A DNA stretch of 64,000 nucleotides, from the NCBI RefSeq assembly GCF_024700885.2, contig NZ_CP117016.1. One strand, given 5' to 3'. The DNA is from Escherichia coli. GTDB taxonomy: Bacteria; Pseudomonadota; Gammaproteobacteria; Enterobacterales; Enterobacteriaceae. Each line of letters starts with the position of its first letter. Position 1 is the stretch's first letter. The notes below the pieces were generated by a model. It had not been told where the DNA came from. It did no database searches and saw only the letters and a program-made list of their open reading frames with translations. Below are positions 5,639 to 27,013 of this stretch, piece by piece. A program made the position numbers and the translations under genes.

Positions 5639-5712
5639 TGGAGCGGGCGAAGGGAATCGAACCCTCGTATAGAGCTTGGGAAGCTCTCGTTCTACCATTG
5701 AACTACGCCCGC
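5639..5712 (-). tRNA. glyU: tRNA-Gly (anticodon CCC)
   Basis: Reverse complement reads GCGGGCGTAGTTCAATGGTAGAACGAGAGCTTCCCAAGCTCTATACGAGGGTTCGATTCCCTTCGCCCGCTCCA with encoded CCA. Confidence 0.95.
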
Positions 5713-6567: not shown

Positions 6568-6887
6568 GACGCCATATCATAGCAGCCAGCCTCTGGATAC
6601 CCAATCTCTTGCTTCTCGAAAAACGCGGTAATAGAGAAAGAGGTTAATTTCATTTGGCAAAGGGAAGTATCATCAGCAAAATATTCGCTGCAGAGGTATC
6701 GAATTTCCTGACTTTTTTACCCTATTTCCCATCCTGATGCGTAATAATCCTGATTTATCACATTGATTTTATCGCCACTCATATTGATACGTATCACTGC
6801 CCCTATTCAGAGTCCTGTTTCGTATCATATCTGTGTTTTTTTAACGTCATCACACTTCCTTCCTCCCCTAACGCTTATCGTCGTTTC

Positions 6888-6902
6888 TGGCGTAAATCTT
6901 GC
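6888..6902 (+). promoter_or_regulatory. candidate sigma54 (-24/-12) promoter for xdhA: TGGCGTAAATCTTGC
   Basis: GG and GC spaced as in the TGGCAC-N5-TTGC consensus; about 96 bp upstream of the xdhA start. Confidence 0.4.
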
Positions 6903-6997
6903 CTGCTTAGACTAAATCTTTGCCATAAGAACCAAATGTTCAAATCGAGGGGATTTCTATGGAAGCGCGGGAAGCAACCGCTACGGGTGAATCTTGC

Positions 6998-9256: not shown

Positions 9257-9266
9257 GGATAACATC

Positions 9267-10145
9267 ATGTTTGATTTTGCTTCTTACCATCGCGCAGCAA
9301 CCCTTGCCGATGCCATCAACCTGCTGGCTGACAACCCACAGGCCAAACTGCTCGCCGGTGGCACTGACGTACTGATTCAGCTCCACCATCACAATGACCG
9401 TTATCGCCATATTGTTGATATTCATAATCTGGCGGAGCTGCGGGGAATTACGCTAGCGGAAGATGGCTCACTACGTATCGGCTCTGCAACGACATTTACC
9501 CAGCTCATTGAAGATCCTGTAACTCAACGTCATCTCCCAGCGTTATGTGCTGCGGCCTCGTCCATTGCCGGACCGCAGATCCGTAACGTCGCTACCTACG
9601 GTGGAAATATTTGCAACGGTGCTACCAGTGCAGATTCTGCCACGCCAACGCTAATTTATGACGCGAAACTGGAGATTCACTCCCCGCGCGGTGTTCGTTT
9701 CGTCCCGATTAATGGCTTTCACACTGGGCCGGGCAAAGTGTCTCTTGAGCATGACGAAATCCTTGTCGCCTTTCATTTTCCGCCCCAGCCGAAAGAACAC
9801 GCGGGCAGCGCGCATTTTAAATATGCCATGCGCGACGCAATGGATATTTCAACGATTGGCTGCGCCGCACATTGCCGACTGGATAACGGCAATTTCAGCG
9901 AATTACGCCTGGCATTTGGTGTTGCCGCGCCAACGCCAATTCGCTGCCAACATGCCGAACAGACTGCACAAAATGCGCCATTAAACCTGCAAACACTGGA
10001 AGCCATCAGCGAATCAGTCCTGCAAGATGTCGCCCCGCGTTCTTCATGGCGGGCCAGTAAAGAGTTTCGTCTGCATCTCATCCAGACGATGACCAAAAAA
10101 GTGATTAGCGAAGCCGTCGCCGCGGCGGGGGGAAAATTGCAATGA
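9267..10145 (+). CDS. xdhB: xanthine dehydrogenase, FAD-binding subunit
   Basis: 292-aa ORF of the CO-dehydrogenase flavoprotein family; immediately downstream of xdhA. Confidence 0.9.
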
Positions 10146-10621
10146 ATCACAGCGAAACAATCACCATCGAATGCACCATTAACGGGATGCCTTTTCAGCT
10201 TCACGCCGCACCAGGCACGCCGCTCTCGGAATTACTCCGCGAACAAGGACTGCTAAGTGTCAAACAAGGGTGCTGCGTGGGTGAATGTGGTGCCTGTACG
10301 GTGCTGGTCGACGGCACAGCAATAGACAGTTGCTTATACCTTGCCGCCTGGGCTGAAGGAAAAGAGATCCGCACGCTGGAAGGTGAAGCGAAAGGCGGAA
10401 AACTTTCTCATGTACAGCAGGCTTATGCTAAATCCGGCGCAGTGCAGTGCGGGTTTTGTACGCCTGGCCTGATTATGGCTACCACAGCAATGCTGGCGAA
10501 ACCACGCGAGAAGCCATTAACCATTACGGAAATTCGTCGCGGACTGGCGGGAAATCTTTGTCGCTGCACGGGGTATCAGATGATTGTAAATACAGTTCTG
10601 GATTGCGAGAAAACGAAGTAA
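10142..10621 (+). CDS. xdhC: xanthine dehydrogenase, 2Fe-2S subunit
   Basis: 159-aa ORF with Cys clusters [11 protein letters not shown] and CGFCTPG; ATGA overlap with the xdhB stop. Confidence 0.9.
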
Positions 10622-10626
10622 AAGGA

Positions 10627-10650
10627 TATCCGGCCTGAATTCAGGCCGGA
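10627..10650. terminator. bidirectional terminator-like perfect palindrome between convergent xdhC and ygeV
   Basis: ATCCGGCCTGAATTCAGGCCGGAT is a perfect 24-bp palindrome. Confidence 0.5.
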
Positions 10651-10660
10651 TTCACTGAGG

Positions 10661-12439
10661 TTATGTGTTTAACAACTCATATTTCTTAATCTTGCGATAG
10701 AGCGTAGCAATGCCGATGCCCAGTTCATCAGCAACTTGCTTCTTGCTGTTATGACGTGAAAGCGCCTCGCGGATCATTTGCTTTTCCATCTCCTCCAGCG
10801 CCGTGCCGCCCGCATCATCGAGTGCCAGGTGCGCCTCGTTGACCTCTGTTACATCACTTTGCTCCGTTGTGCCATTATTCAGCAGATTTGGCGGCAATAG
10901 CGTGCTGTCGATAACTTCACCTGAAGGAACCACGTTAACCAGATATTCCATCAAATTGCTTAACTCGCGCAGGTTTCCGGGCCAACGATGCTTACGCAAT
11001 ATTTCGACGACATCGGGAGCAATGCCCGGATAAACCGATCCCAGACGACGGGTATGCAGATGTAAAAAGTAATGCACCAGTAGTTCAATATCTTCCTGAC
11101 GTTCACGCAGCGGTGGCAGAGTTATCGGGATAACATTAAGTCGGTAGAAGAGATCTTCGCGGAATTTACCTTCGGCAATGAACTGGGCCAAATTCTGGTT
11201 AGTTGCAGAAATGATGCGAATGTCGACTTGTATTGGGCTACTGGCACCAATCGGCAGAATTTCACGCGCCTCAATAGCGCGCAGTAATTTAGCCTGCAAC
11301 ATTAATGGCATATCACCTATTTCATCGAGAAACAGCGTGCCCGTATTCGCCGCCTGAATCAACCCTGTTTTACCGTTGGCAGAAGCGCCAGTAAATGCGC
11401 CTTTAACATAACCGAACAGTTCGCTCTCCAGAAGCTGCTCCGGAATCGCGGCACAGTTGATAGCAATAAAGGGTTTATTCCGTCTTCCGCTCAACTTATG
11501 GATTGCACGGGCGACAACTTCTTTACCCGTGCCGCTTTCACCAACCACCATAACGCTGGATGGGCTGGGTGCAATACGGCTAATGAGTCGTTTTAATTGC
11601 CGCATAACACGGCACTCGCCAACCAATTGTTCAATATGCGGTTCATCAGGTGCATTTGCTACAGAAAAACTGGTATGCGATTGGTGAAACGCCATTAAAA
11701 ATAATTGTCGGCCCTGAATGTTATGCAATTGACCAATGATTAATTCACTTTTATCGTCCCACGAAACAATATGCTGCATATGTCCATGGGTAAAATTACT
11801 CTCAAATGTTAATGGTCTGAAACGGATAGGTTTCCCAATAATATTATTTTGTACAACACCAAGTGTTTTTAAGGCAGTCTGATTAACAAACTGAATCCGA
11901 TTATCGTCATCAACAACTAATACACCCTGATCCATATTATCGATCATGGTCGCGAATATTTTACTGATGTTATCTCCTGGTCCCTGATCCTCCAGAAGTT
12001 TCGAAACAAAAATGGTGGATATATGGCGAACGTAATCAGAAAATTCGCGTAAATTATCACTAATATGCTCTTGTTGCTCGTGGGTAACGGCAATCAAACT
12101 TATCACCCCAACACAACGATCCTGTAAAATGACAGGCGTACCCAGAAATGCTTTTTCGCGGCAATTTTCTTTACTATCGCAACCTTCGCAAAGGGGATCG
12201 AAGCGAGACTGTGTCACAACTTTTTCAGTTTTCGTTTCCAGGACGTGGCGGAGCAGGCGTGAGTTGCCGCTCAACTGGCGACCAAGAAACTTCCCATACG
12301 CGCCCGTTCCGGCGACGCGACACAAGTTTTCATCAACGATCTCAACCTCAAGCTGCAAAACGCTGGCAAGCATTCTGGCAAAACGCTGAATTGTCGGTTG
12401 AATTTGCATCAATACTGACTGCGTAGTAGCAAGCTCCAT
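10661..12439 (-). CDS. ygeV: sigma54-dependent transcriptional activator (bacterial enhancer-binding protein)
   Basis: 592-aa ORF with AAA+ Walker A GESGTGKE, the sigma54-contact motif GAFTGA, and a C-terminal helix-turn-helix. Confidence 0.9.
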   Translation of the reverse strand: MELATTQSVLMQIQPTIQRFARMLASVLQLEVEIVDENLCRVAGTGAYGKFLGRQLSGNSRLLRHVLETKTEKVVTQSRFDPLCEGCDSKENCREKAFLGTPVILQDRCVGVISLIAVTHEQQEHISDNLREFSDYVRHISTIFVSKLLEDQGPGDNISKIFATMIDNMDQGVLVVDDDNRIQFVNQTALKTLGVVQNNIIGKPIRFRPLTFESNFTHGHMQHIVSWDDKSELIIGQLHNIQGRQLFLMAFHQSHTSFSVANAPDEPHIEQLVGECRVMRQLKRLISRIAPSPSSVMVVGESGTGKEVVARAIHKLSGRRNKPFIAINCAAIPEQLLESELFGYVKGAFTGASANGKTGLIQAANTGTLFLDEIGDMPLMLQAKLLRAIEAREILPIGASSPIQVDIRIISATNQNLAQFIAEGKFREDLFYRLNVIPITLPPLRERQEDIELLVHYFLHLHTRRLGSVYPGIAPDVVEILRKHRWPGNLRELSNLMEYLVNVVPSGEVIDSTLLPPNLLNNGTTEQSDVTEVNEAHLALDDAGGTALEEMEKQMIREALSRHNSKKQVADELGIGIATLYRKIKKYELLNT

Positions 12440-12749
12440 AGCTTTACCTTCCAGACTTACTTAAAAGTCGATCATTGAAGACGTTGATGGTTCACAGATC
12501 ATGATGATATTAACTCAGGCGAAATTGGCTTTGATAAAAACATAAGATTTTTATCACTTTCTAATGAAATTATGGAAGAGATATCACATTTCTATATCAA
12601 TATGAGAATTACGGCGGTGAGTTTATCAAACTGAAGAGAGAGCGCCTGTTCCTTTATCTTATTTCTGATACTTAGCAGCAAATAAATAACGCGATAAAAA
12701 AAGCCAAACGTTTTCGTATTTTACAAACAACCAGAAGCTGGCATCAATT

Positions 12750-12765
12750 TGTGATCAACCCCACA
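12750..12765. promoter_or_regulatory. CRP-like site TGTGATCAACCCCACA upstream of ygeW
   Basis: TGTGA-N6-CCACA, 9 of 10 matches to the CRP half-sites TGTGA-N6-TCACA. Confidence 0.35.
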
Positions 12766-12808
12766 CATTACCCGTCAAATTAGTCTTTTGCAGCCGCTTG
12801 GATAATTC

Positions 12809-12823
12809 TGGCATAGTTATTGT
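12809..12823 (+). promoter_or_regulatory. candidate sigma54 -24/-12 element TGGCATAGTTATTGT upstream of ygeW
   Basis: GG at -24 spacing and TTGT in place of TTGC; about 90 bp upstream of the ygeW start. Confidence 0.3.
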
Positions 12824-12915
12824 TAGTCCCAGGTATAGCTGTGAAAAGACCAATCACTTTTGGCAAGTCACAGTGAAATAAACCTCTTTGCCTGTCATTC
12901 CACTACCGGGACTTT

Positions 12916-14106
12916 ATGATGAAAACTGTTAATGAGCTGATTAAGGATATCAATTCGCTGACCTCTCACCTTCACGAGAAAGATTTTTTGTTAACGTGGG
13001 AACAGACGCCAGATGAACTGAAACAAGTACTGGACGTTGCCGCAGCATTAAAAGCACTGCGTGCTGAAAACATCTCAACCAAAGTCTTTAATAGTGGATT
13101 AGGTATTTCCGTATTCCGCGACAACTCCACCCGTACCCGTTTCTCTTATGCTTCCGCGCTTAACCTGCTCGGCCTTGCACAGCAAGATCTCGACGAAGGC
13201 AAATCACAAATCGCTCACGGCGAAACCGTGCGTGAAACCGCCAATATGATCTCCTTCTGCGCCGATGCCATCGGTATTCGTGACGATATGTATCTGGGCG
13301 CAGGCAACGCCTATATGCGTGAAGTTGGCGCTGCACTTGATGACGGTTACAAGCAGGGTGTGCTGCCGCAACGTCCGGCTTTAGTGAACCTGCAATGCGA
13401 TATTGACCACCCGACTCAGTCAATGGCTGACCTGGCATGGTTACGTGAACACTTTGGTTCACTGGAAAACCTGAAAGGTAAAAAAATCGCCATGACCTGG
13501 GCCTACTCCCCAAGCTATGGCAAACCGCTCTCTGTACCACAAGGCATCATCGGTCTGATGACTCGCTTCGGTATGGATGTCACCCTGGCCCATCCGGAAG
13601 GCTACGACCTGATCCCGGATGTCGTTGAAGTCGCTAAAAACAATGCTAAAGCCTCCGGCGGTAGCTTCCGTCAGGTCACCAGCATGGAAGAAGCCTTCAA
13701 AGACGCAGACATCGTTTATCCGAAGTCATGGGCACCTTACAAAGTGATGGAAGAGCGTACTGAATTGCTGCGTGCGAACGATCACGAAGGCTTAAAAGCA
13801 CTGGAAAAACAGTGTCTGGCACAGAACGCGCAACACAAAGACTGGCATTGTACTGAAGAGATGATGGAACTGACCCGTGATGGCGAAGCCCTGTACATGC
13901 ACTGCCTGCCAGCTGATATCAGCGGCGTATCCTGCAAAGAAGGTGAAGTGACTGAAGGCGTATTCGAAAAATACCGTATCGCGACCTACAAAGAAGCCAG
14001 CTGGAAGCCTTATATCATCGCCGCGATGATCCTGTCCCGCAAATACGCCAAACCAGGTGCACTGCTCGAGCAACTGCTGAAAGAAGCGCAAGAACGCGTG
14101 AAATAA
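12916..14106 (+). CDS. ygeW: carbamoyltransferase (ornithine/aspartate transcarbamylase superfamily)
   Basis: 396-aa ORF with the carbamoyl-phosphate-binding STRTR motif and HCLP motif. Confidence 0.85.
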   Translation: MMKTVNELIKDINSLTSHLHEKDFLLTWEQTPDELKQVLDVAAALKALRAENISTKVFNSGLGISVFRDNSTRTRFSYASALNLLGLAQQDLDEGKSQIAHGETVRETANMISFCADAIGIRDDMYLGAGNAYMREVGAALDDGYKQGVLPQRPALVNLQCDIDHPTQSMADLAWLREHFGSLENLKGKKIAMTWAYSPSYGKPLSVPQGIIGLMTRFGMDVTLAHPEGYDLIPDVVEVAKNNAKASGGSFRQVTSMEEAFKDADIVYPKSWAPYKVMEERTELLRANDHEGLKALEKQCLAQNAQHKDWHCTEEMMELTRDGEALYMHCLPADISGVSCKEGEVTEGVFEKYRIATYKEASWKPYIIAAMILSRKYAKPGALLEQLLKEAQERVK

Positions 14107-14163
14107 CCCCTCGGGCCGATCAGCTGGTCGGCCCTCTATTTCCAGAGGCCAAAAGGATAGGAT

Positions 14164-15360
14164 ATGTCCGTTTTCTCATTGAAGATTGATATCGCCGATA
14201 ACAAATTTTTCAACGGCGAAACATCACCGCTCTTTTCGCAAAGCCAGGCCAAACTGGCGCGCCAGTTCCACCAGAAAATTGCTGGTTATCGCCCAACACC
14301 GCTTTGTGCGCTGGACGATCTCGCAAACCTTTTTGGTGTGAAGAAAATTCTCGTCAAAGACGAATCAAAACGATTCGGTCTGAACGCCTTCAAAATGCTC
14401 GGCGGTGCGTACGCCATCGCTCAATTATTGTGTGAAAAATATCATCTTGATATCGAAACGCTGTCATTTGAGCATCTGAAAAATGCCATCGGCGAAAAAA
14501 TGACCTTCGCGACCACCACCGACGGCAACCACGGGCGCGGTGTGGCATGGGCAGCACAGCAACTCGGACAGAATGCGGTGATTTACATGCCGAAAGGTTC
14601 TGCTCAGGAACGCGTTGACGCCATTCTGAACCTCGGTGCCGAGTGCATCGTCACGGATATGAACTATGACGATACCGTTCGCCTGACCATGCAACACGCG
14701 CAGCAGCACGGCTGGGAAGTGGTGCAAGATACCGCCTGGGAAGGTTACACCAAAATCCCAACCTGGATCATGCAGGGCTATGCAACACTGGCAGATGAAG
14801 CCGTCGAGCAAATGCGTGAAATGGGCGTAACCCCGACGCACGTTCTGCTGCAAGCTGGTGTCGGTGCAATGGCCGGTGGTGTGCTGGGTTATCTGGTCGA
14901 CGTCTATAGCCCGCAAAATCTGCACAGCATTATTGTTGAACCTGACAAAGCTGACTGTATTTATCGCTCCGGCGTCAAAGGCGACATCGTCAACGTTGGC
15001 GGTGATATGGCCACCATCATGGCGGGCCTGGCCTGCGGCGAACCTAACCCGCTGGGCTGGGAAATCCTACGTAACTGCGCCACCCAATTCATCTCCTGCC
15101 AGGACAGTGTTGCCGCATTAGGTATGCGTGTGCTGGGTAATCCGTACGGCAATGACCCGCGCATCATCTCCGGTGAATCCGGCGCTGTCGGTTTGGGCGT
15201 TCTCGCAGCGGTTCATTATCACCCGCAACGTCAAAGCCTGATGGAAAAACTGGCGCTGAACAAAGATGCCGTAGTGCTGGTTATCAGCACTGAAGGCGAC
15301 ACAGACGTGAAGCACTACCGCGAAGTTGTCTGGGAAGGCAAACACGCTGTAGCACCTTAA
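14164..15360 (+). CDS. ygeX: PLP-dependent diaminopropionate ammonia-lyase
   Basis: 398-aa ORF; position after ygeW matches K-12 order; family assignment (Trp-synthase beta / serine dehydratase fold) is from memory of this gene, no specific motif checked. Confidence 0.85.
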   Translation: MSVFSLKIDIADNKFFNGETSPLFSQSQAKLARQFHQKIAGYRPTPLCALDDLANLFGVKKILVKDESKRFGLNAFKMLGGAYAIAQLLCEKYHLDIETLSFEHLKNAIGEKMTFATTTDGNHGRGVAWAAQQLGQNAVIYMPKGSAQERVDAILNLGAECIVTDMNYDDTVRLTMQHAQQHGWEVVQDTAWEGYTKIPTWIMQGYATLADEAVEQMREMGVTPTHVLLQAGVGAMAGGVLGYLVDVYSPQNLHSIIVEPDKADCIYRSGVKGDIVNVGGDMATIMAGLACGEPNPLGWEILRNCATQFISCQDSVAALGMRVLGNPYGNDPRIISGESGAVGLGVLAAVHYHPQRQSLMEKLALNKDAVVLVISTEGDTDVKHYREVVWEGKHAVAP

Positions 15361-15417
15361 TCACCCTATTGGAACTGCTCCCTGCAAAACGGGGAGTAAA
15401 AAATCTGGAGAAAAATA

Positions 15418-16629
15418 ATGGCTAAGAATATTCCATTCAAACTGATTCTTGAAAAAGCAAAAGATTACCAGGCGGACATGACTCGCTTCCTGCGCGACAT
15501 GGTTGCTATTCCCAGTGAAAGCTGCGACGAAAAACGCGTAGTACATCGTATTAAAGAAGAGATGGAAAAAGTCGGCTTCGATAAAGTTGAAATCGACCCG
15601 ATGGGCAACGTTCTCGGTTATATCGGCCACGGCCCGCGTCTGGTGGCAATGGACGCTCATATTGATACCGTCGGCATTGGCAACATCAAAAACTGGGACT
15701 TCGATCCGTACGAAGGCATGGAAACTGATGAGCTGATCGGTGGTCGCGGTACTTCCGACCAGGAAGGCGGCATGGCATCTATGGTTTATGCCGGTAAAAT
15801 CATTAAAGACCTCGGTCTGGAAGATGAATATACCCTGCTGGTTACCGGTACTGTGCAGGAAGAAGACTGCGACGGTCTGTGCTGGCAGTACATTATTGAA
15901 CAATCCGGCATTCGCCCGGAATTTGTGGTCAGTACCGAACCAACCGACTGCCAGGTATACCGTGGTCAGCGCGGTCGTATGGAAATTCGTATTGATGTTC
16001 AGGGTGTTAGCTGCCACGGTTCTGCGCCAGAACGCGGTGACAACGCCATTTTCAAAATGGGTCCGATTCTTGGCGAATTACAAGAACTCTCCCAACGTCT
16101 GGGTTATGACGAATTCCTCGGCAAAGGCACCCTCACCGTTTCTGAAATCTTCTTCACATCCCCAAGCCGTTGCGCTGTAGCAGATAGCTGCGCCGTCTCT
16201 ATTGACCGCCGTCTGACCTGGGGCGAAACCTGGGAAGGCGCGCTGGACGAAATCCGCGCCCTGCCTGCAGTACAGAAAGCTAACGCGGTTGTTTCTATGT
16301 ACAACTACGACCGTCCGTCCTGGACTGGCCTGGTTTACCCAACCGAATGCTACTTCCCGACCTGGAAAGTGGAAGAAGATCACTTCACCGTTAAAGCACT
16401 GGTGAATGCCTACGAAGGTCTGTTTGGCAAAGCGCCGGTTGTTGATAAGTGGACCTTCTCAACTAACGGCGTATCTATCATGGGCCGTCACGGCATTCCG
16501 GTGATCGGCTTTGGCCCAGGTAAAGAACCTGAAGCGCATGCACCTAACGAAAAAACCTGGAAATCTCACCTGGTGACCTGTGCCGCGATGTACGCGGCAA
16601 TCCCGTTAAGCTGGCTGGCAACCGAATAA
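15418..16629 (+). CDS. ygeY: M20-family metallopeptidase / amidohydrolase
   Basis: 403-aa ORF; position between ygeX and hyuA matches K-12 order; M20 (ArgE/DapE) family assignment is from memory, no specific motif checked. Confidence 0.85.
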
Positions 16630-16646
16630 TTACTCTTCACTTATTC

Positions 16647-16671
16647 CCCTCCGGTTCGCCGGAGGGTTTTT
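16647..16671 (+). terminator. intrinsic terminator-like hairpin between ygeY and hyuA
   Basis: CCCTCCGG-TTCG-CCGGAGGG stem-loop followed by TTTTT, ending 11 nt before the hyuA start. Confidence 0.5.
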
Positions 16672-16681
16672 GGAGTTTGCT

Positions 16682-18067
16682 ATGCGCGTATTGATCAAAA
16701 ACGGCACTGTCGTTAACGCAGATGGACAAGCCAAACAGGATTTGCTGATTGAAAGCGGGATTGTTCGCCAGTTGGGCAACAATATTTCGCCACAGCTCCC
16801 GTATGAAGAAATTGATGCCACTGGCTGTTACGTTTTCCCTGGCGGCGTGGATGTCCATACGCATTTCAATATTGATGTCGGCATCGCGCGCAGTTGTGAT
16901 GATTTTTTTACCGGTACCCGCGCAGCTGCGTGTGGCGGTACAACAACCATTATTGACCATATGGGATTTGGCCCGAATGGCTGCCGGTTACGCCATCAAC
17001 TGGAGGTTTATCGTGGTTATGCCGCCCATAAGGCGGTCATCGACTACAGCTTTCACGGTGTGATCCAGCACATTAATCACGCCATCCTCGACGAAATTCC
17101 GATGATGGTCGAAGAAGGACTGAGCAGTTTTAAACTCTATTTAACCTATCAATACAAACTCAACGATGACGAAGTTTTGCAGGCGTTACGCCGCTTGCAT
17201 GAGTCCGGCGCGCTGACCACCGTGCACCCGGAAAATGATGCAGCTATCGCCAGCAAGCGGGCGGAGTTTATTGCCGCAGGGTTAACCGCGCCGCGCTATC
17301 ACGCCTTGAGTCGCCCTCTGGAATGCGAAGCGGAAGCCATCGCCCGCATGATTAACCTGGCACAAATTGCCGGTAACGCCCCGCTCTATATCGTGCACCT
17401 GTCTAACGGCTTAGGTCTGGATTATCTGCGTCTTGCCCGTGCGAATCACCAGCCAGTCTGGGTTGAAACCTGCCCACAATATCTCCTGTTGGACGAACGC
17501 AGTTACGATACAGAAGATGGCATGAAGTTCATTCTTAGCCCACCGCTGCGTAACGTACGCGAGCAGGACAAACTGTGGTGTGGCATCAGCGATGGTGCGA
17601 TTGACGTGGTAGCGACCGATCACTGCACATTCTCGATGGCTCAACGCCTGCAAATTTCTAAAGGCGATTTCAGTCGCTGCCCAAATGGCTTACCCGGTGT
17701 GGAAAACCGCATGCAGTTACTGTTTTCCAGTGGCGTTATGACGGGACGTATAACACCGGAACGTTTTGTTGAATTAACCAGCGCGATGCCCGCCAGGCTG
17801 TTTGGCCTGTGGCCGCAAAAAGGATTATTAGCGCCCGGTTCCGATGGCGACGTGGTGATTATCGACCCACGTCAGAGTCAACAAATTCAGCATCGCCATC
17901 TCCACGACAACGCCGACTACTCGCCATGGGAGGGTTTTACCTGTCAGGGCGCGATTGTCAGAACTTTATCCCGTGGTGAAACGATTTTCTGTGACGGCAC
18001 TTTTACAGGCAAAGCCGGGCGAGGTCGTTTCCTGCGACGCAAACCGTTTGTCCCTCCCGTGCTCTAA
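16682..18067 (+). CDS. hyuA: D-phenylhydantoinase (cyclic amidohydrolase)
   Basis: 461 aa from the ATG at 16682 (MRVLIKNGTVV...); metal-binding HTHF motif; ORF-track start at 16670 is TTG. Confidence 0.85.
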   Translation: MRVLIKNGTVVNADGQAKQDLLIESGIVRQLGNNISPQLPYEEIDATGCYVFPGGVDVHTHFNIDVGIARSCDDFFTGTRAAACGGTTTIIDHMGFGPNGCRLRHQLEVYRGYAAHKAVIDYSFHGVIQHINHAILDEIPMMVEEGLSSFKLYLTYQYKLNDDEVLQALRRLHESGALTTVHPENDAAIASKRAEFIAAGLTAPRYHALSRPLECEAEAIARMINLAQIAGNAPLYIVHLSNGLGLDYLRLARANHQPVWVETCPQYLLLDERSYDTEDGMKFILSPPLRNVREQDKLWCGISDGAIDVVATDHCTFSMAQRLQISKGDFSRCPNGLPGVENRMQLLFSSGVMTGRITPERFVELTSAMPARLFGLWPQKGLLAPGSDGDVVIIDPRQSQQIQHRHLHDNADYSPWEGFTCQGAIVRTLSRGETIFCDGTFTGKAGRGRFLRRKPFVPPVL

Positions 18068-18114
18068 CCACTGCCAAGGATCTATACACAATCAAGAATG
18101 ATGAGTGAGGAAAA

Positions 18115-19047
18115 ATGAGTAAGAAAATTGTTCTCGCCCTGGGCGGGAATGCGCTGGGCGACGATCTGGCCGGGCAAATGAAAGCGGTAAAAATTACTTC
18201 TCAGGCAATTGTTGATTTAATTGCCCAGGGACATGAGGTCATCGTCACTCACGGTAACGGGCCACAGGTGGGCATGATTAACCAGGCCTTTGAAGCTGCC
18301 GCAAAAACTGAAGCGCACTCGCCAATGCTGCCGATGTCTGTCTGTGTTGCCTTAAGCCAGGGTTATATTGGTTACGATCTACAAAACGCATTAAGAGAAG
18401 AACTGCTTTCTCGTGGCATTAATAAACCTGTAGCAACGCTGGTTACCCAGGTCGAAGTCGATGCTAACGACCCGGCATTCCTCAACCCGACCAAACCGAT
18501 CGGTTCGTTCTTTACCGAGCAAGAAGCAGAGCAACTGACAAAACAGGGTTACACTCTGAAAGAAGATGCTGGTCGCGGCTATCGCCGTGTTGTTGCCTCG
18601 CCAAAACCGGTTGATATCATTGAAAAAGAAACGGTTAAAGCGTTGGTAGATGCAGGCCAGGTGGTGATCACCGTTGGCGGTGGTGGTATCCCTGTTATTC
18701 GTGAAGGTAACCACCTGCGTGGTGCCAGTGCGGTTATCGATAAAGACTGGGCCAGCGCCCGTTTAGCAGAAATGATTGATGCCGATATGCTGATCATTCT
18801 GACTGCGGTAGAAAAAGTGGCCATTAACTTCGGTAAAGAGAATGAACAGTGGCTCGATCGCCTGTCATTAAGTGATGCTGAACGCTTTATCGAAGAAGGT
18901 CATTTTGCGAAAGGTTCTATGCTGCCTAAAGTGGAAGCTGCCGCCTCGTTTGCTCGCTCTCGCGCAGGTCGTGAAGCACTGATTACCGTATTGAGCAAAG
19001 CGAAAGAAGGGATTGAAGGCAAAACCGGAACGGTGATTTGTCAGTAA
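18115..19047 (+). CDS. yqeA: carbamate kinase-like protein
   Basis: 310-aa ORF of the amino-acid kinase family (N-terminal LGGNAL, GGGIP motif). Confidence 0.85.
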   Translation: MSKKIVLALGGNALGDDLAGQMKAVKITSQAIVDLIAQGHEVIVTHGNGPQVGMINQAFEAAAKTEAHSPMLPMSVCVALSQGYIGYDLQNALREELLSRGINKPVATLVTQVEVDANDPAFLNPTKPIGSFFTEQEAEQLTKQGYTLKEDAGRGYRRVVASPKPVDIIEKETVKALVDAGQVVITVGGGGIPVIREGNHLRGASAVIDKDWASARLAEMIDADMLIILTAVEKVAINFGKENEQWLDRLSLSDAERFIEEGHFAKGSMLPKVEAAASFARSRAGREALITVLSKAKEGIEGKTGTVICQ

Positions 19048-19050
19048 TTA

Positions 19051-19084
19051 AAAGGCCGGGTGGGTAATACCATCCGGCCATTTT
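19051..19084. terminator. bidirectional terminator between convergent yqeA and yqeB
   Basis: GGCCGG...CCGGCC stem flanked by A-run and T-run. Confidence 0.5.
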
Positions 19085-19087
19085 CAT

Positions 19088-20713
19088 TTAAGCCACTTCC
19101 AGCACTTCTTTTGTCGCTTTCACGCCCTGATGCATCAACATCATTAACGCCTCAAGTACGCCGCCGCCAATTGCCCGGGCTTTATCAGAAACGCTGGTGA
19201 AATCAGCCGTTTCACCACGAGGATCGATATCACCAATTTTAAAACCACCGACCACTGCTAGTCCGTCGTTCAACAAGCCACGCACCATCCCCGTCAACGG
19301 TGCTTTAATTTCATGCTCACCAATCCAGGCAATCACATCGCCCTCTTTCACCAGATCGCCTAATTTCACGTTGGATCGCATAATGCCTGCAGCAGGAGCA
19401 CGGATCACCCGTCGGGTGGTATGCCCCATAATATTGCTAGGAACACCGGTATTCTCCTGCGCACAACCAGAGTAAATCACCTGACCGAGCCAGTGCCCGC
19501 GATTTGTTTCAATTACCGCATGACAATCCTTCCCTGCAATAAAGCCCGGCCCAAGCGCGATTGTTACTGGTGCCATATCTGCCCGCGTCCCCAAATTCTG
19601 TTTCGCCAGAATAGCGTCCACCACGCAAAGCGGTTTCAGTTCATCAAGCAATGAACAGGCGGGATCTACCATCACAGGGATGAATCCGCGTTCGGTAAGT
19701 TTCATCGCTTCCGCAGAGCTGGTTGCCAGGCGGGCAGTGACGCCTTCGACCGTCATTTCGCCATCGAACACGGCCTGGGCAAACGCCACGGTACAACGAA
19801 TCACTGTCGGTTTTTCCACTTCCAGCATGATCACTTTAAAACCCGCATGATACAGACGTAGCGCCACACCACTGGCGATATCCCCCGCACCGCGAATCAC
19901 CACCAGCTGGTGTCCGGAAGGATGAGAAGGTTTCATCATCAGCCCACCCGGCGCGTTATTTTTCACCTGTAATATTTCTGCCAGCACGCTGATGGCGATC
20001 TCCTGCGGCGTTTCCGCACCTATGTTGTAACCAACGGGCGCATGTAAACGGGCAATATGTTCTTCAGCCACGCCTTTCTCACGCAATTGACGCAGGAAAA
20101 GCTGAACCTTGCGGCGACTTGCCAGCAACCCCAGCCATGCAATGGGCTGTTCAATGAGTTTGTCGAGGGCTTCACGATCCTGATTATTCGTGGCAATCAG
20201 GACAAAATTATCAGGGCGAATATCCAGTGCTTCCACTGCCGCACCAAACGACTCAGCATGGAGAAGCGTGGTTGATGGTGGGAATAATTCAGGATTGAGG
20301 CTTTCGCGATAAATATCGGCAACGGCAATATCAAATCCTAATAGCGCCGCACTCTGGGCTATCGCCCGGTTGACATGCCCCGCGCCAATCAACACCAGAC
20401 GTGGACGCATACCATGGACGCTGATAAATACGGACATTGCACCTCCACAATCTGACCCGACAGCATCCGCACCGTTACGAGCCATACGTCCATGGAATAA
20501 TCGCGGCTTACGTTCCTGCAATGCCTGAAGCGACTCTTCAATCACCTTCCGCTCAACCATTCCGCCACCAATTGTACCGACGATAGAGCCATCGGCGCGC
20601 ACTAACATTTGTGCAGAATGGCGGGGAGTCGAGCCTCGGCTATCAACAATTTGCGCCATCGCAAACGGACAATTTTGCTCTTCGAGTTTTGCAGCCTCTG
20701 TGAAAATATTCAT
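19088..20713 (-). CDS. yqeB: XdhC/CoxI-family accessory protein (marker of selenium-dependent molybdenum hydroxylase loci)
   Basis: 541-aa ORF; synteny with yqeC and mocA. Confidence 0.8.
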   Translation of the reverse strand: MNIFTEAAKLEEQNCPFAMAQIVDSRGSTPRHSAQMLVRADGSIVGTIGGGMVERKVIEESLQALQERKPRLFHGRMARNGADAVGSDCGGAMSVFISVHGMRPRLVLIGAGHVNRAIAQSAALLGFDIAVADIYRESLNPELFPPSTTLLHAESFGAAVEALDIRPDNFVLIATNNQDREALDKLIEQPIAWLGLLASRRKVQLFLRQLREKGVAEEHIARLHAPVGYNIGAETPQEIAISVLAEILQVKNNAPGGLMMKPSHPSGHQLVVIRGAGDIASGVALRLYHAGFKVIMLEVEKPTVIRCTVAFAQAVFDGEMTVEGVTARLATSSAEAMKLTERGFIPVMVDPACSLLDELKPLCVVDAILAKQNLGTRADMAPVTIALGPGFIAGKDCHAVIETNRGHWLGQVIYSGCAQENTGVPSNIMGHTTRRVIRAPAAGIMRSNVKLGDLVKEGDVIAWIGEHEIKAPLTGMVRGLLNDGLAVVGGFKIGDIDPRGETADFTSVSDKARAIGGGVLEALMMLMHQGVKATKEVLEVA

Positions 20714-20760
20714 ACCAACCTCAATGGATATCCTTTCAGTAACCCGGAATACCCGGGCCG

Positions 20761-21531
20761 CTAATTCACAAATCTGCGCGCGATTGCAGGATGTTCTTGT
20801 ATATCGCCCAGCCAGATTGCCTCTACGTCGTGTTGTTGCAGCGGTTGAAGGAGCTCGCTTTGTGCAATCGCATTCTCACATTGAGAAAAACGGTTAATGA
20901 ACCAGACTCGCCGACAACCTTGCGGTACGTTTTTAAATGCGCCCTGAGGGTGGCGAACCAGCGCAACGAGATCGCTCAGTTGCAAGGTTGCATCAGGTGT
21001 TAACCCGGTAATATCAGCAAACTGCGACCAGCGATGGACATTTTCTGTGCTCACTTTCGCGCCCAAAATATGTCCTCCCATCACAGCAATCACGCAGCAA
21101 CTGCTTTTGGGTATGCAAGGTTCGTGCTCATCAGGCGCTTTTAACGTCATTCCACGCGAGCCATCTGCCTCAATGAGAATTACGTCACACTCTGGTCGTT
21201 GCACCAGTGCATCAATCGCTTCTGGCGTAAATCCCTGCACTTTTCCCTGGTTCGCTTTCCAGCTGTGAAAACAAAATGAAATGGGGGATGTAAGAGACGC
21301 ATGAGGAAGCATGGCGGGATCACGACAGAAAACCACGGGCCAGTGAGACGTTGGCATAAACATATGTGTCGTCGTAGTGATTAACACACGCCTGCCGCTA
21401 GCCTGGAGCAGTTCTGCCAGCCAAAAAAGCAAGCTGGTTTTCCCCCCAGCCCCAACAACAGAAATCACAGTGGGACGTTTCTGCGCGCCTAAATCAATGA
21501 ATAATGCCGATGGGTCAACTATACTTTTCAC
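20761..21531 (-). CDS. yqeC: selenium-dependent molybdenum hydroxylase system protein (YqeC family)
   Basis: 256-aa ORF with P-loop-like VVGAGGKTS; synteny. Confidence 0.75.
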   Translation of the reverse strand: MKSIVDPSALFIDLGAQKRPTVISVVGAGGKTSLLFWLAELLQASGRRVLITTTTHMFMPTSHWPVVFCRDPAMLPHASLTSPISFCFHSWKANQGKVQGFTPEAIDALVQRPECDVILIEADGSRGMTLKAPDEHEPCIPKSSCCVIAVMGGHILGAKVSTENVHRWSQFADITGLTPDATLQLSDLVALVRHPQGAFKNVPQGCRRVWFINRFSQCENAIAQSELLQPLQQHDVEAIWLGDIQEHPAIARRFVN

Positions 21532-21633
21532 GAGTCTTTATGACCTCTCTGGGATAAATTATCCCCAACTTAATCCATCAGGAAGTAACGCAATTATCAG
21601 GCGTTATTAGCCCCTATAAATAATGGAACCACT

Positions 21634-22212
21634 ATGTCAGCCATCGACTGTATAATTACCGCTGCCGGATTATCATCAAGAATGGGGCAATGGAAAATGA
21701 TGTTACCCTGGCAACAGGGAACAATTCTTGATACAAGTATCAAAAATGCGTTGCAGTTTTGTAGCCGAATTATTTTAGTCACCGGCTATCGTGGTAATGA
21801 ACTGCACGAGCGTTATGCGAACCAGAGCAATATCACTATTATCCACAACCCAGATTATGCGCAGGGTTTACTAACATCAGTAAAGGCCGCAGTACCCGCG
21901 GTAAAAACAGAATATTGTTTTCTCACCCACGGTGACATGCCTACCCTCACCATCGATATTTTTAGAAAAATCTGGTCGTTACGAAATGATGGCGCAATAC
22001 TGCCACTCCATAATGGCATTCCCGGCCATCCGATTTTAGTGTCAAAGCCATGCCTGATGCAGGCAATCCAGCGTCCCAATATCACCAATATGCGTCAGGC
22101 ACTCCTTATGGGAGATCATTATTCCGTCGAAATAGAAAATGCAGAAATAATTTTAGATATTGATACTCCGGACGACTTTATTACAGCGCAAAAAAGGTAT
22201 ACTAAAATTTAG
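21634..22212 (+). CDS. mocA: molybdenum cofactor cytidylyltransferase (MobA-like)
   Basis: 192-aa ORF with MobA-like nucleotidyltransferase N-terminus (AAGLSSRMG). Confidence 0.8.
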   Translation: MSAIDCIITAAGLSSRMGQWKMMLPWQQGTILDTSIKNALQFCSRIILVTGYRGNELHERYANQSNITIIHNPDYAQGLLTSVKAAVPAVKTEYCFLTHGDMPTLTIDIFRKIWSLRNDGAILPLHNGIPGHPILVSKPCLMQAIQRPNITNMRQALLMGDHYSVEIENAEIILDIDTPDDFITAQKRYTKI

Positions 22213-22366
22213 AAAATGTAGTTAAACGATTGCGTTCAAATATTTAATCCCTCCAGCACTCTTTATCATAATGATAAGGAATCACTGATTTTGAGAAAAG
22301 AGAAAAAGTGATAAATGGGCTGGCAATAATAATTTTCAGGAGTGATTTTAATTCTCATTTGGCACC

Positions 22367-22382
22367 TGTGAGTTCATTCACA
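22367..22382. promoter_or_regulatory. CRP binding site TGTGAGTTCATTCACA upstream of ygfK
   Basis: Perfect match to both CRP consensus half-sites TGTGA-N6-TCACA. Confidence 0.55.
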
Positions 22383-22436
22383 AAAAGCTCCTAAGTTTCG
22401 AGCCGCCTCACATTTTTTTATATTTCCCGCCAAACC

Positions 22437-22452
22437 TGGCAAGAGTGGTGCG
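22437..22452 (+). promoter_or_regulatory. candidate sigma54 -24/-12 element TGGCAAGAGTGGTGCG upstream of ygfK
   Basis: GG-N10-GC spacing correct; about 80 bp upstream of the ygfK start. Confidence 0.3.
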
Positions 22453-22533
22453 ATTGTTGCTCTATCCCCCTAAACCACCGGATTTCTCAACACCGGTCAC
22501 TCAATGATATCTGTATAAGCTAAGGAGAGGGTT

Positions 22534-25500
22534 ATGGGGGATATTATGCGTCCCATTCCGTTTGAGGAACTTTTGACGCGCATATTTGATGAATACCAAC
22601 AACAACGCTCAATCTTTGGTATTCCCGAGCAACAGTTTTACTCACCCGTAAAAGGTAAAACTGTTAGCGTCTTCGGTGAAACCTGTGCCACTCCCGTCGG
22701 CCCTGCCGCTGGCCCGCACACGCAGCTCGCGCAAAATATTGTCACTTCCTGGCTGACTGGCGGGCGCTTCATCGAACTAAAAACCGTCCAAATTCTTGAC
22801 CGTCTGGAGCTGGAAAAGCCCTGTATCGATGCCGAAGACGAGTGCTTTAACACCGAATGGTCTACCGAATTTACCCTGCTTAAAGCCTGGGATGAATACC
22901 TCAAAGCCTGGTTTGCCCTGCACCTTCTCGAAGCGATGTTCCAGCCTTCTGATTCCGGTAAATCGTTCATCTTTAATATGAGCGTCGGTTATAACCTCGA
23001 AGGTATTAAGCAACCGCCGATGCAACAGTTCATCGACAATATGATGGATGCATCTGACCATCCGAAATTCGCTCAATATCGCGATACGCTGAATAAATTA
23101 CTCCAGGATGACGCATTTTTAGCCCGCCACGGATTGCAGGAAAAACGCGAATGCCTGCAGGCCTTACCGGCACGCATCCCCACCAGCATGGTAGAAGGCG
23201 TTACCCTCTCCACCATGCACGGCTGTCCTCCGCATGAAATCGAAGCCATTTGCCGCTACATGCTGGAAGAAAAAGGGCTCAATACCTTTGTGAAACTCAA
23301 CCCGACCTTACTGGGGTACGCGCGTGTTCGTGAGATCCTCGATGTCTGCGGTTTCGGTTACATAGGCTTAAAAGAAGAGTCATTTGATCACGACCTCAAG
23401 CTGACGCAAGCGCTGGAAATGCTGGAACGCCTGATGGTACTGGCAAAAGAAAAATCACTCGGCTTTGGCGTAAAACTGACTAACACTCTCGGCACCATCA
23501 ACAATAAAGGCGCACTGCCTGGTGAAGAGATGTATATGTCAGGCCGTGCGCTGTTCCCGCTCTCCATCAATGTTGCAGCAGTTCTCTCTCGCGCCTTTGA
23601 CGGCAAACTGCCCATTTCTTATTCCGGTGGTGCCAGTCAGCTGACTATCCGCGATATTTTTGATACTGGTATTCGCCCTATTACTATGGCAACCGACCTG
23701 CTGAAACCTGGCGGCTATCTGCGCTTAAGTGCCTGCATGCGCGAGCTGGAAGGCTCCGACGCCTGGGGGCTTGACCATGTTGACGTCGAACGCCTGAACA
23801 AACTGGCAGCAGACGCGTTAACCATGGAATACACTCAGAAACACTGGAAGCCAGAAGAGCGTATTGAAGTGGCAGAAGACCTGCCGCTGACCGACTGCTA
23901 CGTTGCACCGTGCGTTACTGCTTGCGCCATTAAACAGGATATTCCGGAATACATCCGTCTGCTTGGCGAACACCGCTATGCCGACGCACTGGAACTCATC
24001 TACCAACGCAACGCCCTGCCCGCCATTACCGGTCATATTTGCGATCACCAGTGCCAATACAACTGTACCCGCCTGGATTACGACAGTGCGCTGAATATCC
24101 GCGAACTGAAAAAAGTCGCGCTGGAAAAAGGTTGGGATGAATATAAGCAACGCTGGCACAAACCAGCCGGTTCTGGTTCACGCCATCCGGTTGCCGTGAT
24201 TGGTGCAGGTCCGGCGGGTCTGGCAGCAGGTTACTTCCTTGCCAGAGCGGGCCATCCGGTTACGCTGTTTGAACGCGAAGCCAATGCGGGCGGCGTGGTG
24301 AAAAATATCATTCCTCAGTTCCGTATTCCTGCAGAGTTAATTCAGCACGATATCGATTTTGTTGCCGCTCACGGCGTGAAATTTGAGTATGGCTGCTCAC
24401 CCGATTTGACCGTTGAACAGTTAAAAAATCAGGGCTTCCACTATGTTCTGATTGCCACCGGCACTGATAAAAATAGCGGTGTGAAACTGGCGGGCGACAA
24501 CCAAAATGTCTGGAAATCACTCCCCTTCCTGCGTGAATACAACAAGGGCACAGCGCTCAAGCTGGGCAAACATGTGGTCGTTGTCGGGGCGGGTAACACG
24601 GCAATGGACTGCGCTCGTGCGGCGTTACGCGTTCCAGGCGTAGAAAAAGCAACGGTCGTTTACCGTCGTTCACTGCAAGAGATGCCAGCATGGCGCGAAG
24701 AGTATGAAGAAGCGTTGCACGACGGTGTGGAGTTCCGTTTCCTGAATAATCCGGAACGTTTCGATGCTGATGGCACCTTAACCTTGCGCGTTATGTCGCT
24801 TGGCGAACCTGATGAGAAAGGTCGTCGCCGTCCGGTTGAAACCAACGAAACAGTAACACTGCATGTAGACAGCCTGATCACCGCCATTGGTGAACAGCAG
24901 GATACTGAAGCCCTGAATGCGATGGGCGTGCCGCTGGACAAAAACGGCTGGCCAGACGTCGACCATAATGGCGAAACTCGTCTGACTGACGTCTTTATGA
25001 TCGGCGACGTACAGCGCGGACCATCCTCCATTGTCGCTGCTGTCGGAACCGCGCGTCGGGCGACCGATGCCATCCTTAGTCGGGAAAACATCCGTTCCCA
25101 CCAGAACGATAAATACTGGAACAACGTCAATCCGGCGGAAATCTATCAACGCAAAGGCGATATCTCTATCACCCTGGTGGATAGCGACGATCGTGACGCG
25201 TTTGTCGCCCAGGAAGCCGCACGCTGCCTTGAATGTAACTACGTTTGCAGCAAGTGTGTGGATGTCTGCCCGAACCGCGCCAACGTATCCATTGCGGTCC
25301 CTGGCTTCCAGATCCGTTTCCAGACGCTGCACCTCGACGCTTACTGTAACGAATGCGGCAACTGCGCTCAGTTCTGCCCGTGGAACGGTAAACCGTACAA
25401 AGACAAAATCACCGTCTTCAGCCTGTCGCAAGACTTTGATAACAGCAGCAACCCTGGCTTCCTTGTGGAAGATTGCCGGGTACGAGTACGTCTGAATAAC

Positions 25501-25632
25501 CAAAGCTGGGTGTTAAACATCGACAGCGAAGGTCAGTTCAACAACGAACCACCGGAGCTGAACGATATGTGCCGCATTATTAGCCATGTCCACCAGCATC
25601 ATCATTATCTGCTGGGCCGCGTGGAGGTGTAA
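22534..25632 (+). CDS. ygfK: large Fe-S / FAD-NAD(P) oxidoreductase (glutamate-synthase-beta-like domain), putative selenate reductase subunit
   Basis: 1032-aa ORF; Rossmann motif [21 protein letters not shown]; Cys clusters; AAGGAG Shine-Dalgarno. Confidence 0.85.
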   Translation: MGDIMRPIPFEELLTRIFDEYQQQRSIFGIPEQQFYSPVKGKTVSVFGETCATPVGPAAGPHTQLAQNIVTSWLTGGRFIELKTVQILDRLELEKPCIDAEDECFNTEWSTEFTLLKAWDEYLKAWFALHLLEAMFQPSDSGKSFIFNMSVGYNLEGIKQPPMQQFIDNMMDASDHPKFAQYRDTLNKLLQDDAFLARHGLQEKRECLQALPARIPTSMVEGVTLSTMHGCPPHEIEAICRYMLEEKGLNTFVKLNPTLLGYARVREILDVCGFGYIGLKEESFDHDLKLTQALEMLERLMVLAKEKSLGFGVKLTNTLGTINNKGALPGEEMYMSGRALFPLSINVAAVLSRAFDGKLPISYSGGASQLTIRDIFDTGIRPITMATDLLKPGGYLRLSACMRELEGSDAWGLDHVDVERLNKLAADALTMEYTQKHWKPEERIEVAEDLPLTDCYVAPCVTACAIKQDIPEYIRLLGEHRYADALELIYQRNALPAITGHICDHQCQYNCTRLDYDSALNIRELKKVALEKGWDEYKQRWHKPAGSGSRHPVAVIGAGPAGLAAGYFLARAGHPVTLFEREANAGGVVKNIIPQFRIPAELIQHDIDFVAAHGVKFEYGCSPDLTVEQLKNQGFHYVLIATGTDKNSGVKLAGDNQNVWKSLPFLREYNKGTALKLGKHVVVVGAGNTAMDCARAALRVPGVEKATVVYRRSLQEMPAWREEYEEALHDGVEFRFLNNPERFDADGTLTLRVMSLGEPDEKGRRRPVETNETVTLHVDSLITAIGEQQDTEALNAMGVPLDKNGWPDVDHNGETRLTDVFMIGDVQRGPSSIVAAVGTARRATDAILSRENIRSHQNDKYWNNVNPAEIYQRKGDISITLVDSDDRDAFVAQEAARCLECNYVCSKCVDVCPNRANVSIAVPGFQIRFQTLHLDAYCNECGNCAQFCPWNGKPYKDKITVFSLSQDFDNSSNPGFLVEDCRVRVRLNNQSWVLNIDSEGQFNNEPPELNDMCRIISHVHQHHHYLLGRVEV

Positions 25633-25634
25633 TC

Positions 25635-26963: not shown

Positions 26964-27013
26964 ATGACAAATACCCTCTTCCCGTAGGGAAGAGGGTTAA
27001 ATAAGGAAAGAAG

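Follow-up and report, generated by a model that had tools for sequence, protein, structure and literature searches.

A block of five co-directional genes, ygeW-ygeX-ygeY-hyuA-yqeA, occupies positions 12916-19047 of the 64-kb stretch of Escherichia coli DNA analysed here (the window), which is 100% identical to the E. coli SMS-3-5 chromosome (NC_010498.1; window position = NC_010498.1 position minus 3,072,327). The block consists of five open reading frames (ORFs) on the + strand, at 12916-14106, 14164-15360, 15418-16629, 16670/16682-18067 and 18115-19047, which are named ygeW, dpaL (ygeX), ygeY, hyuA and arcC (yqeA) in the RefSeq annotation of NC_010498.1, with a knotted carbamoyltransferase, a diaminopropionate ammonia-lyase, an M20 hydrolase, a D-phenylhydantoinase and a carbamate kinase as the respective products. 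A preliminary description of this DNA had pointed to five genes in one orientation ending in a carbamate kinase, and this is borne out by the ORFs, the annotation and the family scores given below. Antisense ORFs within the block genes (such as 15361-16017, minus strand) were taken as mechanical ORFs in well-supported coding regions.

Families were assigned by Pfam and NCBIfam scans with curated equivalog cut-offs, which all five proteins pass. YgeW (ygeW, 12919-14106, + strand) scored 825 and 675 bits against cut-offs of 453 and 500 (TIGR03316 and NF005538, respectively), contains the carbamoyl-phosphate motifs SxRTR and HPxQ (as STRTR at residues 70-74 and HPTQ at 164-167) as well as HCLP at 328-331, and matched the structure of E. 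coli YgeW (PDB 3Q98) over its full length. YgeX (14164-15360, + strand), a pyridoxal phosphate-dependent 2,3-diaminopropionate ammonia-lyase, scored 651 bits against a cut-off of 532, with PDB 4D9G and related entries, all E. coli YgeX structures, as its structural matches, while YgeY (15418-16629, + strand), an M20 amidohydrolase of the ArgE/DapE type, scored 722 against 321 bits for the YgeY-family M20 hydrolases, with no close solved structure found in the structure search. HyuA (16682-18067, + strand) scored 675 against 393 bits for D-hydantoinase/dihydropyrimidinase (TIGR02033), and YqeA (18115-19047, + strand) 385.6 against 358.25 bits for carbamate kinase (ArcC, TIGR00746). For both of these, the solved structures are of homologues only; those matched by YqeA are the carbamate kinases 1B7B and 1E19, with E-values of 1e-88 to 1e-90.

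Two of the genes offer a choice of start codon. The 5' end of ygeW reads ATGATG, with in-frame ATG codons at 12916 and 12919, and the second is favoured as the probable start because the alignment of most orthologues begins at the second Met. In hyuA, a TTG at 16670 overlaps the Shine-Dalgarno sequence, whereas the ATG at 16682 is both annotated as the start and conserved. The intergenic gaps along the block are consequently 57, 57, 52 and 47 bp. The range of 40-57 bp given previously is correct in its upper bound, whereas the lower bound stemmed from the TTG at 16670, the true minimum being 47 bp.

The function of ygeW-ygeX-ygeY-hyuA-yqeA was worked out in 2023-2025 (Liu et al., Cell 2023; Nat Microbiol 2025;10:2291; Li et al., Life Metab 2025), and the pathway to which they belong has been rebuilt with purified E. 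coli enzymes (Liu et al., bioRxiv 10.1101/2025.04.24.650524; Li et al., PMC12507026). In it, XdhD-YgfM reduces urate to 2,8-dioxopurine ('yanthine'), and YgfK together with SsnA reduces this to the dihydro form and opens its six-membered ring to yield 5-ureidomethyl-hydantoin (PMC12507026). By the literature and the annotation, the first ring is thus opened by SsnA, which is encoded outside the block, in a partner operon (ssnA starts at 25635, ~6.6 kb downstream). The remaining steps would fall to the five enzymes of the block. HyuA would open the hydantoin ring of ureidomethyl-hydantoin to give 2,3-diureidopropionate; YgeW would use phosphate to cleave one of its two ureido groups by phosphorolysis, releasing carbamoyl phosphate; and YqeA would move the phosphate to ADP, leaving carbamate and yielding one ATP per urate by substrate-level phosphorylation. 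YgeY would hydrolyse the second ureido group to leave 2,3-diaminopropionate, which YgeX would convert to pyruvate and two molecules of ammonia. This scheme comes from the literature on the K-12 enzymes, and its extension from these to the proteins of the window strain is by identity. Compared with K-12 MG1655, YgeW, YgeX, YgeY and YqeA are 100% identical and HyuA has one difference (there are 109 nucleotide differences), so that function should transfer directly from the assayed enzymes.

The published evidence is both biochemical and genetic. The HyuA, YgeW (with phosphate), YgeY and YgeX reactions have been demonstrated in vitro (PMC12507026), and formation of ATP from 2,3-diureidopropanoate and ADP needs recombinant YgeW and YqeA together, neither sufficing alone (bioRxiv 10.1101/2025.04.24.650524). 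In K-12, deletion of ygeW, ygeX, ygeY or hyuA abolishes the conversion of 13C-urate to labelled acetate (Liu et al., Cell 2023), pathway mutants accumulate urate-derived intermediates (Liu et al.), and ygeX mutants build up diaminopropionate. The YgeW and YgeY proteins have been detected only in vivo, in the piglet gut. The block is very probably the lower half of this anaerobic reductive, or 2,8-dioxopurine, pathway of urate degradation, its genes probably making up a single unit dependent on sigma-54 and the activator YgeV. The preliminary description had suggested a fermentative urate pathway with ring opening, decarbamoylation and the making of ATP from carbamoyl phosphate, and this matches the published enzymology. 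Its view of the set as 'only partly characterized biochemically' no longer holds, all five enzymes having been assayed by 2025, and the two checks that it proposed, metabolite profiling of deletion mutants and in vitro assay of YgeW and YqeA, have in effect been made in the work just cited, the first by the loss of urate-derived acetate and the second by the production of ATP. The pathway role of the block is accordingly already known, and the regulatory and intercistronic details described below are minor additions to it.

Some of the annotation suggests other roles. The RefSeq names 'D-phenylhydantoinase' and 'YgeY family selenium metabolism-linked hydrolase' would accord with functions unrelated to urate and an incidental clustering of the genes, in which HyuA detoxifies exogenous aryl-hydantoins, YgeX detoxifies free diaminopropionate, YqeA is a spare carbamate kinase of the arginine deiminase (ADI) type and YgeY is a hydrolase of selenium metabolism, its name reflecting the association in genomes with yqeB and yqeC, which are selenium-cofactor genes. 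We consider this highly improbable. The purified enzymes perform consecutive steps on urate-derived intermediates, and the mutants accumulate such intermediates and lose urate-derived acetate. Furthermore, the order of the five genes is conserved across genera, the selenium link is explained by the selenium-dependent molybdenum hydroxylase of the pathway, and neither arcA (arginine deiminase) nor arcD (arginine/ornithine antiporter) is present in the locus or within 20 kb on either side.

Another purine route could also be envisaged, namely clostridial (Rabinowitz) fermentation by way of xanthine, imidazoles and formiminoglycine, or an anaerobic allantoin pathway. The xanthine dehydrogenase genes xdhABC do lie nearby, as previously stated, at 6959-10621 upstream of the block with ygeV intervening before ygeW, and this adjacency suggests xanthine as the entry compound. 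In addition, E. coli can derive ATP from allantoin via a carbamate kinase. Such a role for the module is nonetheless scarcely credible. The intermediates of the Rabinowitz route were undetected in mutants of E. coli or C. sporogenes, and the apparent 'xanthine' was shown to be 2,8-dioxopurine (Liu et al.); the end product is pyruvate, not formiminoglycine; and the pathway is reported to be urate-specific, with no entry by allantoin. The proximity of the xdh genes stands, but XdhABC is not the entry enzyme: XdhA oxidises xanthine to urate, and entry is through XdhD-YgfM.

Assigned in this way to the urate pathway, the block has the same energy logic as the ADI pathway (ArcA, ArcB, ArcC), in which phosphorolysis by a member of the ornithine carbamoyltransferase (OTCase) family likewise provides carbamoyl phosphate from which carbamate kinase makes ATP, a parallel also drawn by Liu et al. 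(bioRxiv 10.1101/2025.04.24.650524). The substrate differs, being 2,3-diureidopropionate in the block and citrulline in the ADI pathway, and YgeW belongs to a separate knotted subfamily, with only 133 bits against the OTCase cut-off of 281. The block thus works like the ADI energy module without being a member of the ADI family. Reductive pyrimidine catabolism (PydA, PydB, PydC) and the industrial D-hydantoinase/carbamoylase system offer a second likeness, made explicit by Li et al. (PMC12507026), in that a cyclic amidohydrolase opens a reduced ring and an N-carbamoyl group is then removed. In contrast to these systems, two ureido groups are involved here, one of them removed by phosphorolysis instead of hydrolysis, and the decarbamoylase YgeY is an M20 enzyme of the ArgE/DapE type rather than a nitrilase-type one. 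Finally, a variant of the urate pathway in C. difficile and Fusobacterium shares the intermediates as far as diureidopropionate and the YgeY and YgeX steps, but has UacY, a D-aminoacylase homologue, in place of YgeW and YqeA. The UacY reaction is hydrolytic and irreversible and gives neither carbamoyl phosphate nor ATP, so that the window, unlike that variant, encodes the ATP-conserving version.

We then considered how the block may be transcribed. The putative sigma-54 promoter of the ygeW operon (12808-12824, + strand; CTGGCATAGTTATTGTT), with GGCAT as its -24 element and an atypical TTGTT (canonical TTGCA) at -12, is the homologue of OS30 (CTGGCACACTTATTGTT), a site identified in K-12 by chromatin immunoprecipitation sequencing (ChIP-seq) 80 nt upstream of ygeW. 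The two differ by two changes, GGCAT replacing the GGCAC of K-12 at -24 and one change in the spacer. Sigma-54 ChIP-seq sites, for which the occupancy data are from K-12 only, lie upstream of xdhA, ygeW, ygfK and ygfT, and all four sites are common to K-12 and the window, where they map in that order to 6887-6903 (exact), 12808-12824 (two changes), 22445-22461 (OS31, exact) and 37452-37468 (minus strand, one change). Beyond E. coli, TGGCAC-N5-TTG(T/A/G) occurs 70-115 nt upstream of ygeW in ~40 proteobacterial loci, and the promoter forms invariant columns in a 15-genus alignment (A4). The GGCAT variant of the -24 element is shared with Hafnia, Morganella and Serratia oryzae, and within E. coli the exact sequence of the window at 12800-12846 is a minority form, present in 193 of the 4517 matching genomes.

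Further putative regulatory elements precede this promoter. In most Enterobacterales, a CRP-like box (in the window at 12750-12765; TGTGATCAACCCCACA) stands at a constant distance of 59-60 nt from the sigma-54 element. It fits the native Crp site that Li et al. mention in the intergenic region upstream of ygeW, and their report that glucose represses the pathway (PMC12507026). The divergent gene ygeV (10661-12439, minus strand), annotated as 'sigma-54 interaction domain-containing protein', encodes a sigma-54 enhancer-binding activator that is the presumed regulator of the ygeW-yqeA module and is divergent from ygeW in ~35 of 80 loci from other species (see below). As a candidate enhancer motif for YgeV we propose the inverted repeat TGATAA-N13/14-TTATCA. 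One possible site, at 12532-12556, is the only exact match to TGATAA-N13-TTATCA in the 64-kb window and has a TTATCA arm that is invariant across the 15 genera; a second, at 12603-12628 (TGAGAA-N14-TTATCA, one mismatch), falls in a conserved block of the alignment. TGATAA/TTATCA half-sites are also found upstream of the sigma-54 promoters of ygfK (22263-22277 and 22309-22314) and xdhA (6755-6760), and overall the repeat or its half-sites precede the ygeW, ygfK and xdhA promoters by 130-280 nt. We found no description of TGATAA-N13/14-TTATCA as a YgeV enhancer. In the 5' untranslated region (UTR) of ygeW (12836-12918), which holds an imperfect inverted repeat CTGTGA...TCACAG, the last ~30 nt before the start (TCATTCCACTACCGGGAC) are strongly conserved across genera.

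At the other end of the block, a strong GC stem (19054-19079; -22.6 kcal/mol, z-score -5.0) between the convergent yqeA and yqeB is likely to be a bidirectional terminator and to mark the 3' end of the operon. The five genes would accordingly form one transcription unit, dependent on sigma-54 and YgeV and modulated by CRP, from the promoter at 12808-12824 to the terminator at 19054-19079, as predicted from sequence.

Several observations weigh against a single unit serving the urate pathway as outlined. On the enzymatic side, the YgeW reaction in vitro is weak compared with the hydrolytic alternative catalysed by UacY (PMC12507026), and the experimental papers have YgeW acting on different ureido groups. 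On the side of transcription, matches in the window to a generic sigma-54 consensus with two mismatches allowed are at chance frequency (45 compared to 44 expected), and the assignment of the promoter consequently rests on the K-12 ChIP-seq data and the cross-genus conservation rather than on the motif alone. Moreover, yqeA is missing from the 13-gene YgeV iModulon, which does include ygeW, ygeX, ygeY and hyuA; the literature speaks of a 'ygeWXY operon'; and the hairpin between ygeY and hyuA (16647-16666), a GC stem followed by TTTTT, resembles an intrinsic terminator in E. coli. Together with another GC stem after ygeW, these last points would favour two or more transcription units, such as ygeWXY and hyuA-yqeA, with the hairpin after ygeY acting as a real terminator. 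We regard such a division as unlikely. No sigma-54 site is listed for hyuA in the K-12 ChIP-seq data, and neither the 3' part of ygeY nor the ygeY-hyuA gap contains a sigma-54 motif; a scan for sigma-70 sites returned no more than in shuffled sequences and so lends no support to an internal promoter; in the iModulon, hyuA shares the regulation of ygeWXY; and the U-tract is absent in most of the genera that keep the stem, an argument against termination as the reason for its conservation. The position of yqeA outside the iModulon is observed despite its tight linkage to hyuA and the lack of a hairpin between the two genes.

The single unit thus preferred contains a stem-loop in each of its first three gaps. 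Stem-loop 1, in the ygeW-ygeX gap (14113-14134, + strand; GGGCCGATC-AGCT-GGTCGGCCC), is GC-rich and weakly terminator-like, with no clear U-tract; stem-loop 2, in the ygeX-ygeY gap (15376-15398, + strand; TGCTCCCTG-CAAAA-CGGGGAGTA), is GC-rich with a fold z-score of -2.8 and no U-tract; and stem-loop 3, in the ygeY-hyuA gap (+ strand; CCCTCCGG-TTCG-CCGGAGGG), is the terminator-like hairpin just mentioned. When the uninterrupted stem of each gap was compared, species by species, with those of 300 dinucleotide shuffles (loci L003-L052), it was significant in 22 of 25 species for ygeW-ygeX, 10 of 23 for ygeX-ygeY and all 23 for ygeY-hyuA, where it measures 8-12 bp. The hyuA-yqeA gap, by comparison, had a significant stem in 1 of 15 species and none in the window. 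This gap frequently spans no more than 0-12 nt, and is just 0-18 nt long in 13 further loci.

These stems diverge in sequence between genera while retaining their pairing. Compensatory pairs (CG/UA, GC/AU) occur in stem-loop 1 and compensatory changes at four of the six pairs in stem-loop 2, and RNAalifold applied to MAFFT alignments gave small consensus helices with compensatory pairs for the ygeW-ygeX and ygeX-ygeY gaps. For the ygeY-hyuA alignment (A1) it gave no structure, though every row contains a hairpin, because the stems there evolve too fast for alignment by sequence. In most Enterobacterales, 12-16 nt separate the end of the ygeY-hyuA stem from the hyuA ATG. A U-tract follows this stem in E. 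coli, Hafnia and Morganella only, most genera having the stem without the tract, so that it does not appear to be conserved as an intrinsic terminator. Across the four spacers of the block, SMS-3-5 and K-12 differ at 1 of 213 positions (P ~1.6e-7 at the flanking synonymous divergence, dS, of 0.084).

With moderate confidence, we suggest that the stems after ygeW, ygeX and ygeY probably modulate the stability of mRNA segments or cause partial termination, thereby tuning the amounts of mRNA and enzyme, while the spacing of hyuA and yqeA suggests that their expression is tightly coupled. Intercistronic hairpins are common in bacterial operons, and those of the block are a detail rather than a discovery. 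An Rfam scan of 10500-22600 at E<=1 yielded no match, which places the hairpins and the ygeW 5' UTR in no known RNA family. The possibility that the hairpins are copies of repetitive extragenic palindromic (REP) sequences or bacterial interspersed mosaic elements was rejected, their sequences being unlike the REP-like insert downstream of yqeA in K-12, the one insert with which they were compared. In the ssnA-ygfM gap (26964-27013), a perfect 11-bp stem without U-tract (ACCCTCTTCCC-GTA-GGGAAGAGGGT; p=0.000 versus shuffles) was also observed, and the other short co-directional gaps of the cluster showed no such stem.

As regards the ureido group cleaved by YgeW, Liu et al. have the enzyme removing the 3-ureido group to leave (R)-3-amino-2-ureidopropanoate, whereas according to Li et al. 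it removes the 2-ureido group to leave albizziin (PMC12507026). A commentary by Percudani lists both the regiochemistry and the stereochemistry of this step as unresolved, and our literature search found no later paper deciding between the two groups. Some indication may be drawn from the protein families. YgeW scores 133 bits as an OTCase, 129 as an N-acetylornithine carbamoyltransferase (AOTCase) and 75 as an aspartate carbamoyltransferase, and has the HCLP motif of the OTC type but lacks the DxxxSMG motif; for YgeY, the nearest families after its own are the ArgE/DapE alpha-N-deacylases. AOTCase and ArgE make up an analogous pair. Because the affinities of YgeW to OTCase and AOTCase and of YgeY to ArgE and DapE mirror that pair, we weakly favour, by analogy, the order of Liu et al., in which YgeW would cut the side-chain (3-) ureido group and YgeY would then remove the alpha-N-carbamoyl. 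The opposite order is favoured by the commercial albizziin standard that Li et al. used and by parsimony with C. difficile, where YgeW is replaced by a D-aminoacylase homologue, UacY. Taken jointly, the two proposals that reach beyond the published pathway, this regiochemistry for YgeW and a role for the intercistronic stems as conserved post-transcriptional elements (acting in partial termination, protection from processing, or stabilisation), are tentative, and we would put their chances at somewhat below even.

To gauge the conservation of the block, we retrieved 80 loci of other species that encode YgeW and used the full set of 22 E. coli cluster proteins as queries against them. The order ygeW-ygeX-ygeY-hyuA-yqeA on a single strand is kept in 35 of the 80 loci, in Enterobacterales, Aeromonas and Photobacterium, and a similar order without ygeX occurs in some betaproteobacterial loci. 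The most conserved neighbour of ygeW is ygeY, found within 10 kb in 69 loci, compared to 38, 45 and 43 loci with ygeX, hyuA and yqeA nearby, counts from which distant homologues may be missing at the thresholds applied. In Bacteroidota, Riflebacteria, Lentisphaerota and Spirochaetota, only ygeY stays beside ygeW. In the distant-phylum loci (L041-L082, from these phyla and others), the usual order is ygeY then ygeW, adjoining xdh-like genes, with two copies of ygeW in one of them (L076), and no homologue of ygeX, yqeA or ygfK was detected within 10 kb at the thresholds used. Such an arrangement may reflect variant pathways or dispersed genes.

Within the species, 5178 of 5426 complete E. coli genomes carry the block and the other 248 lack the module. 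One of the 5182 matching places in this collection is in a record classed as a plasmid. The ratio of nonsynonymous to synonymous divergence from K-12 over the five genes is 0.003 (dS 0.084), and the module in the environmental, multidrug-resistant SMS-3-5 is intact and under strong purifying selection. These figures and the recurrence of the gene order in other species speak against a chance arrangement. The single difference in HyuA, I142M, has Met in the window and Ile in K-12. Since Met is the residue in 38 of 42 orthologues, K-12 is the outlier here and not SMS-3-5.

The block corresponds to b2870-b2874 of K-12, with the same genes, order, spacing and flanking genes. A contrast in spacing is seen downstream, where yqeA and yqeB are 220 bp apart in K-12 (L002, 14395-14614) but 40 bp apart in the window (19048-19087). 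The extra 180 bp in K-12 contain REP-like sequences, with directly repeated copies of the terminator hairpin (AGGCCGGGTGGGTAATACCATCCGGCC) on either side.

The genes for the rest of the pathway are close by. Beyond the block, the order is yqeB and yqeC (minus strand), mocA, ygfK-ssnA-ygfM-xdhD, xanQ, guaD, ghxQ, ygfS and ygfT (minus strand) and uacT, which places the upper-pathway genes ygfK, ssnA, ygfM and xdhD, the urate transporter gene uacT and the selenium/molybdenum cofactor genes yqeB, yqeC and mocA all within 26 kb, with synteny seen in further genera as well. The ygfK-ssnA-ygfM-xdhD operon (22534-30660, + strand), which encodes the upper half of the urate pathway, has a sigma-54 promoter of its own, the site at 22445-22461.

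Others have already shown, working with the very same proteins, that the pathway is of medical significance. A substantial part of human urate is removed by gut bacteria that possess it, and in mice serum urate is lowered by engineered E. coli over-expressing it. The window adds an intact module from SMS-3-5, a strain of environmental origin, and differences between strains in urate consumption have been ascribed to regulation (Liu et al.). The regulatory details described above (promoter, CRP-like box, candidate enhancer and hairpins) could help to explain such differences, to which the minority GGCAT allele of the -24 element might contribute, and could guide the design of uricolytic probiotics.

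Upstream of the cluster, the window contains a copy of IS1A (4689-5386) between yqeH and the tRNA-Gly gene glyU (5639-5712). In K-12, ygeQ and other genes adjoin glyU and are a remnant of the ETT2 island; this remnant appears to have been deleted or replaced in SMS-3-5.

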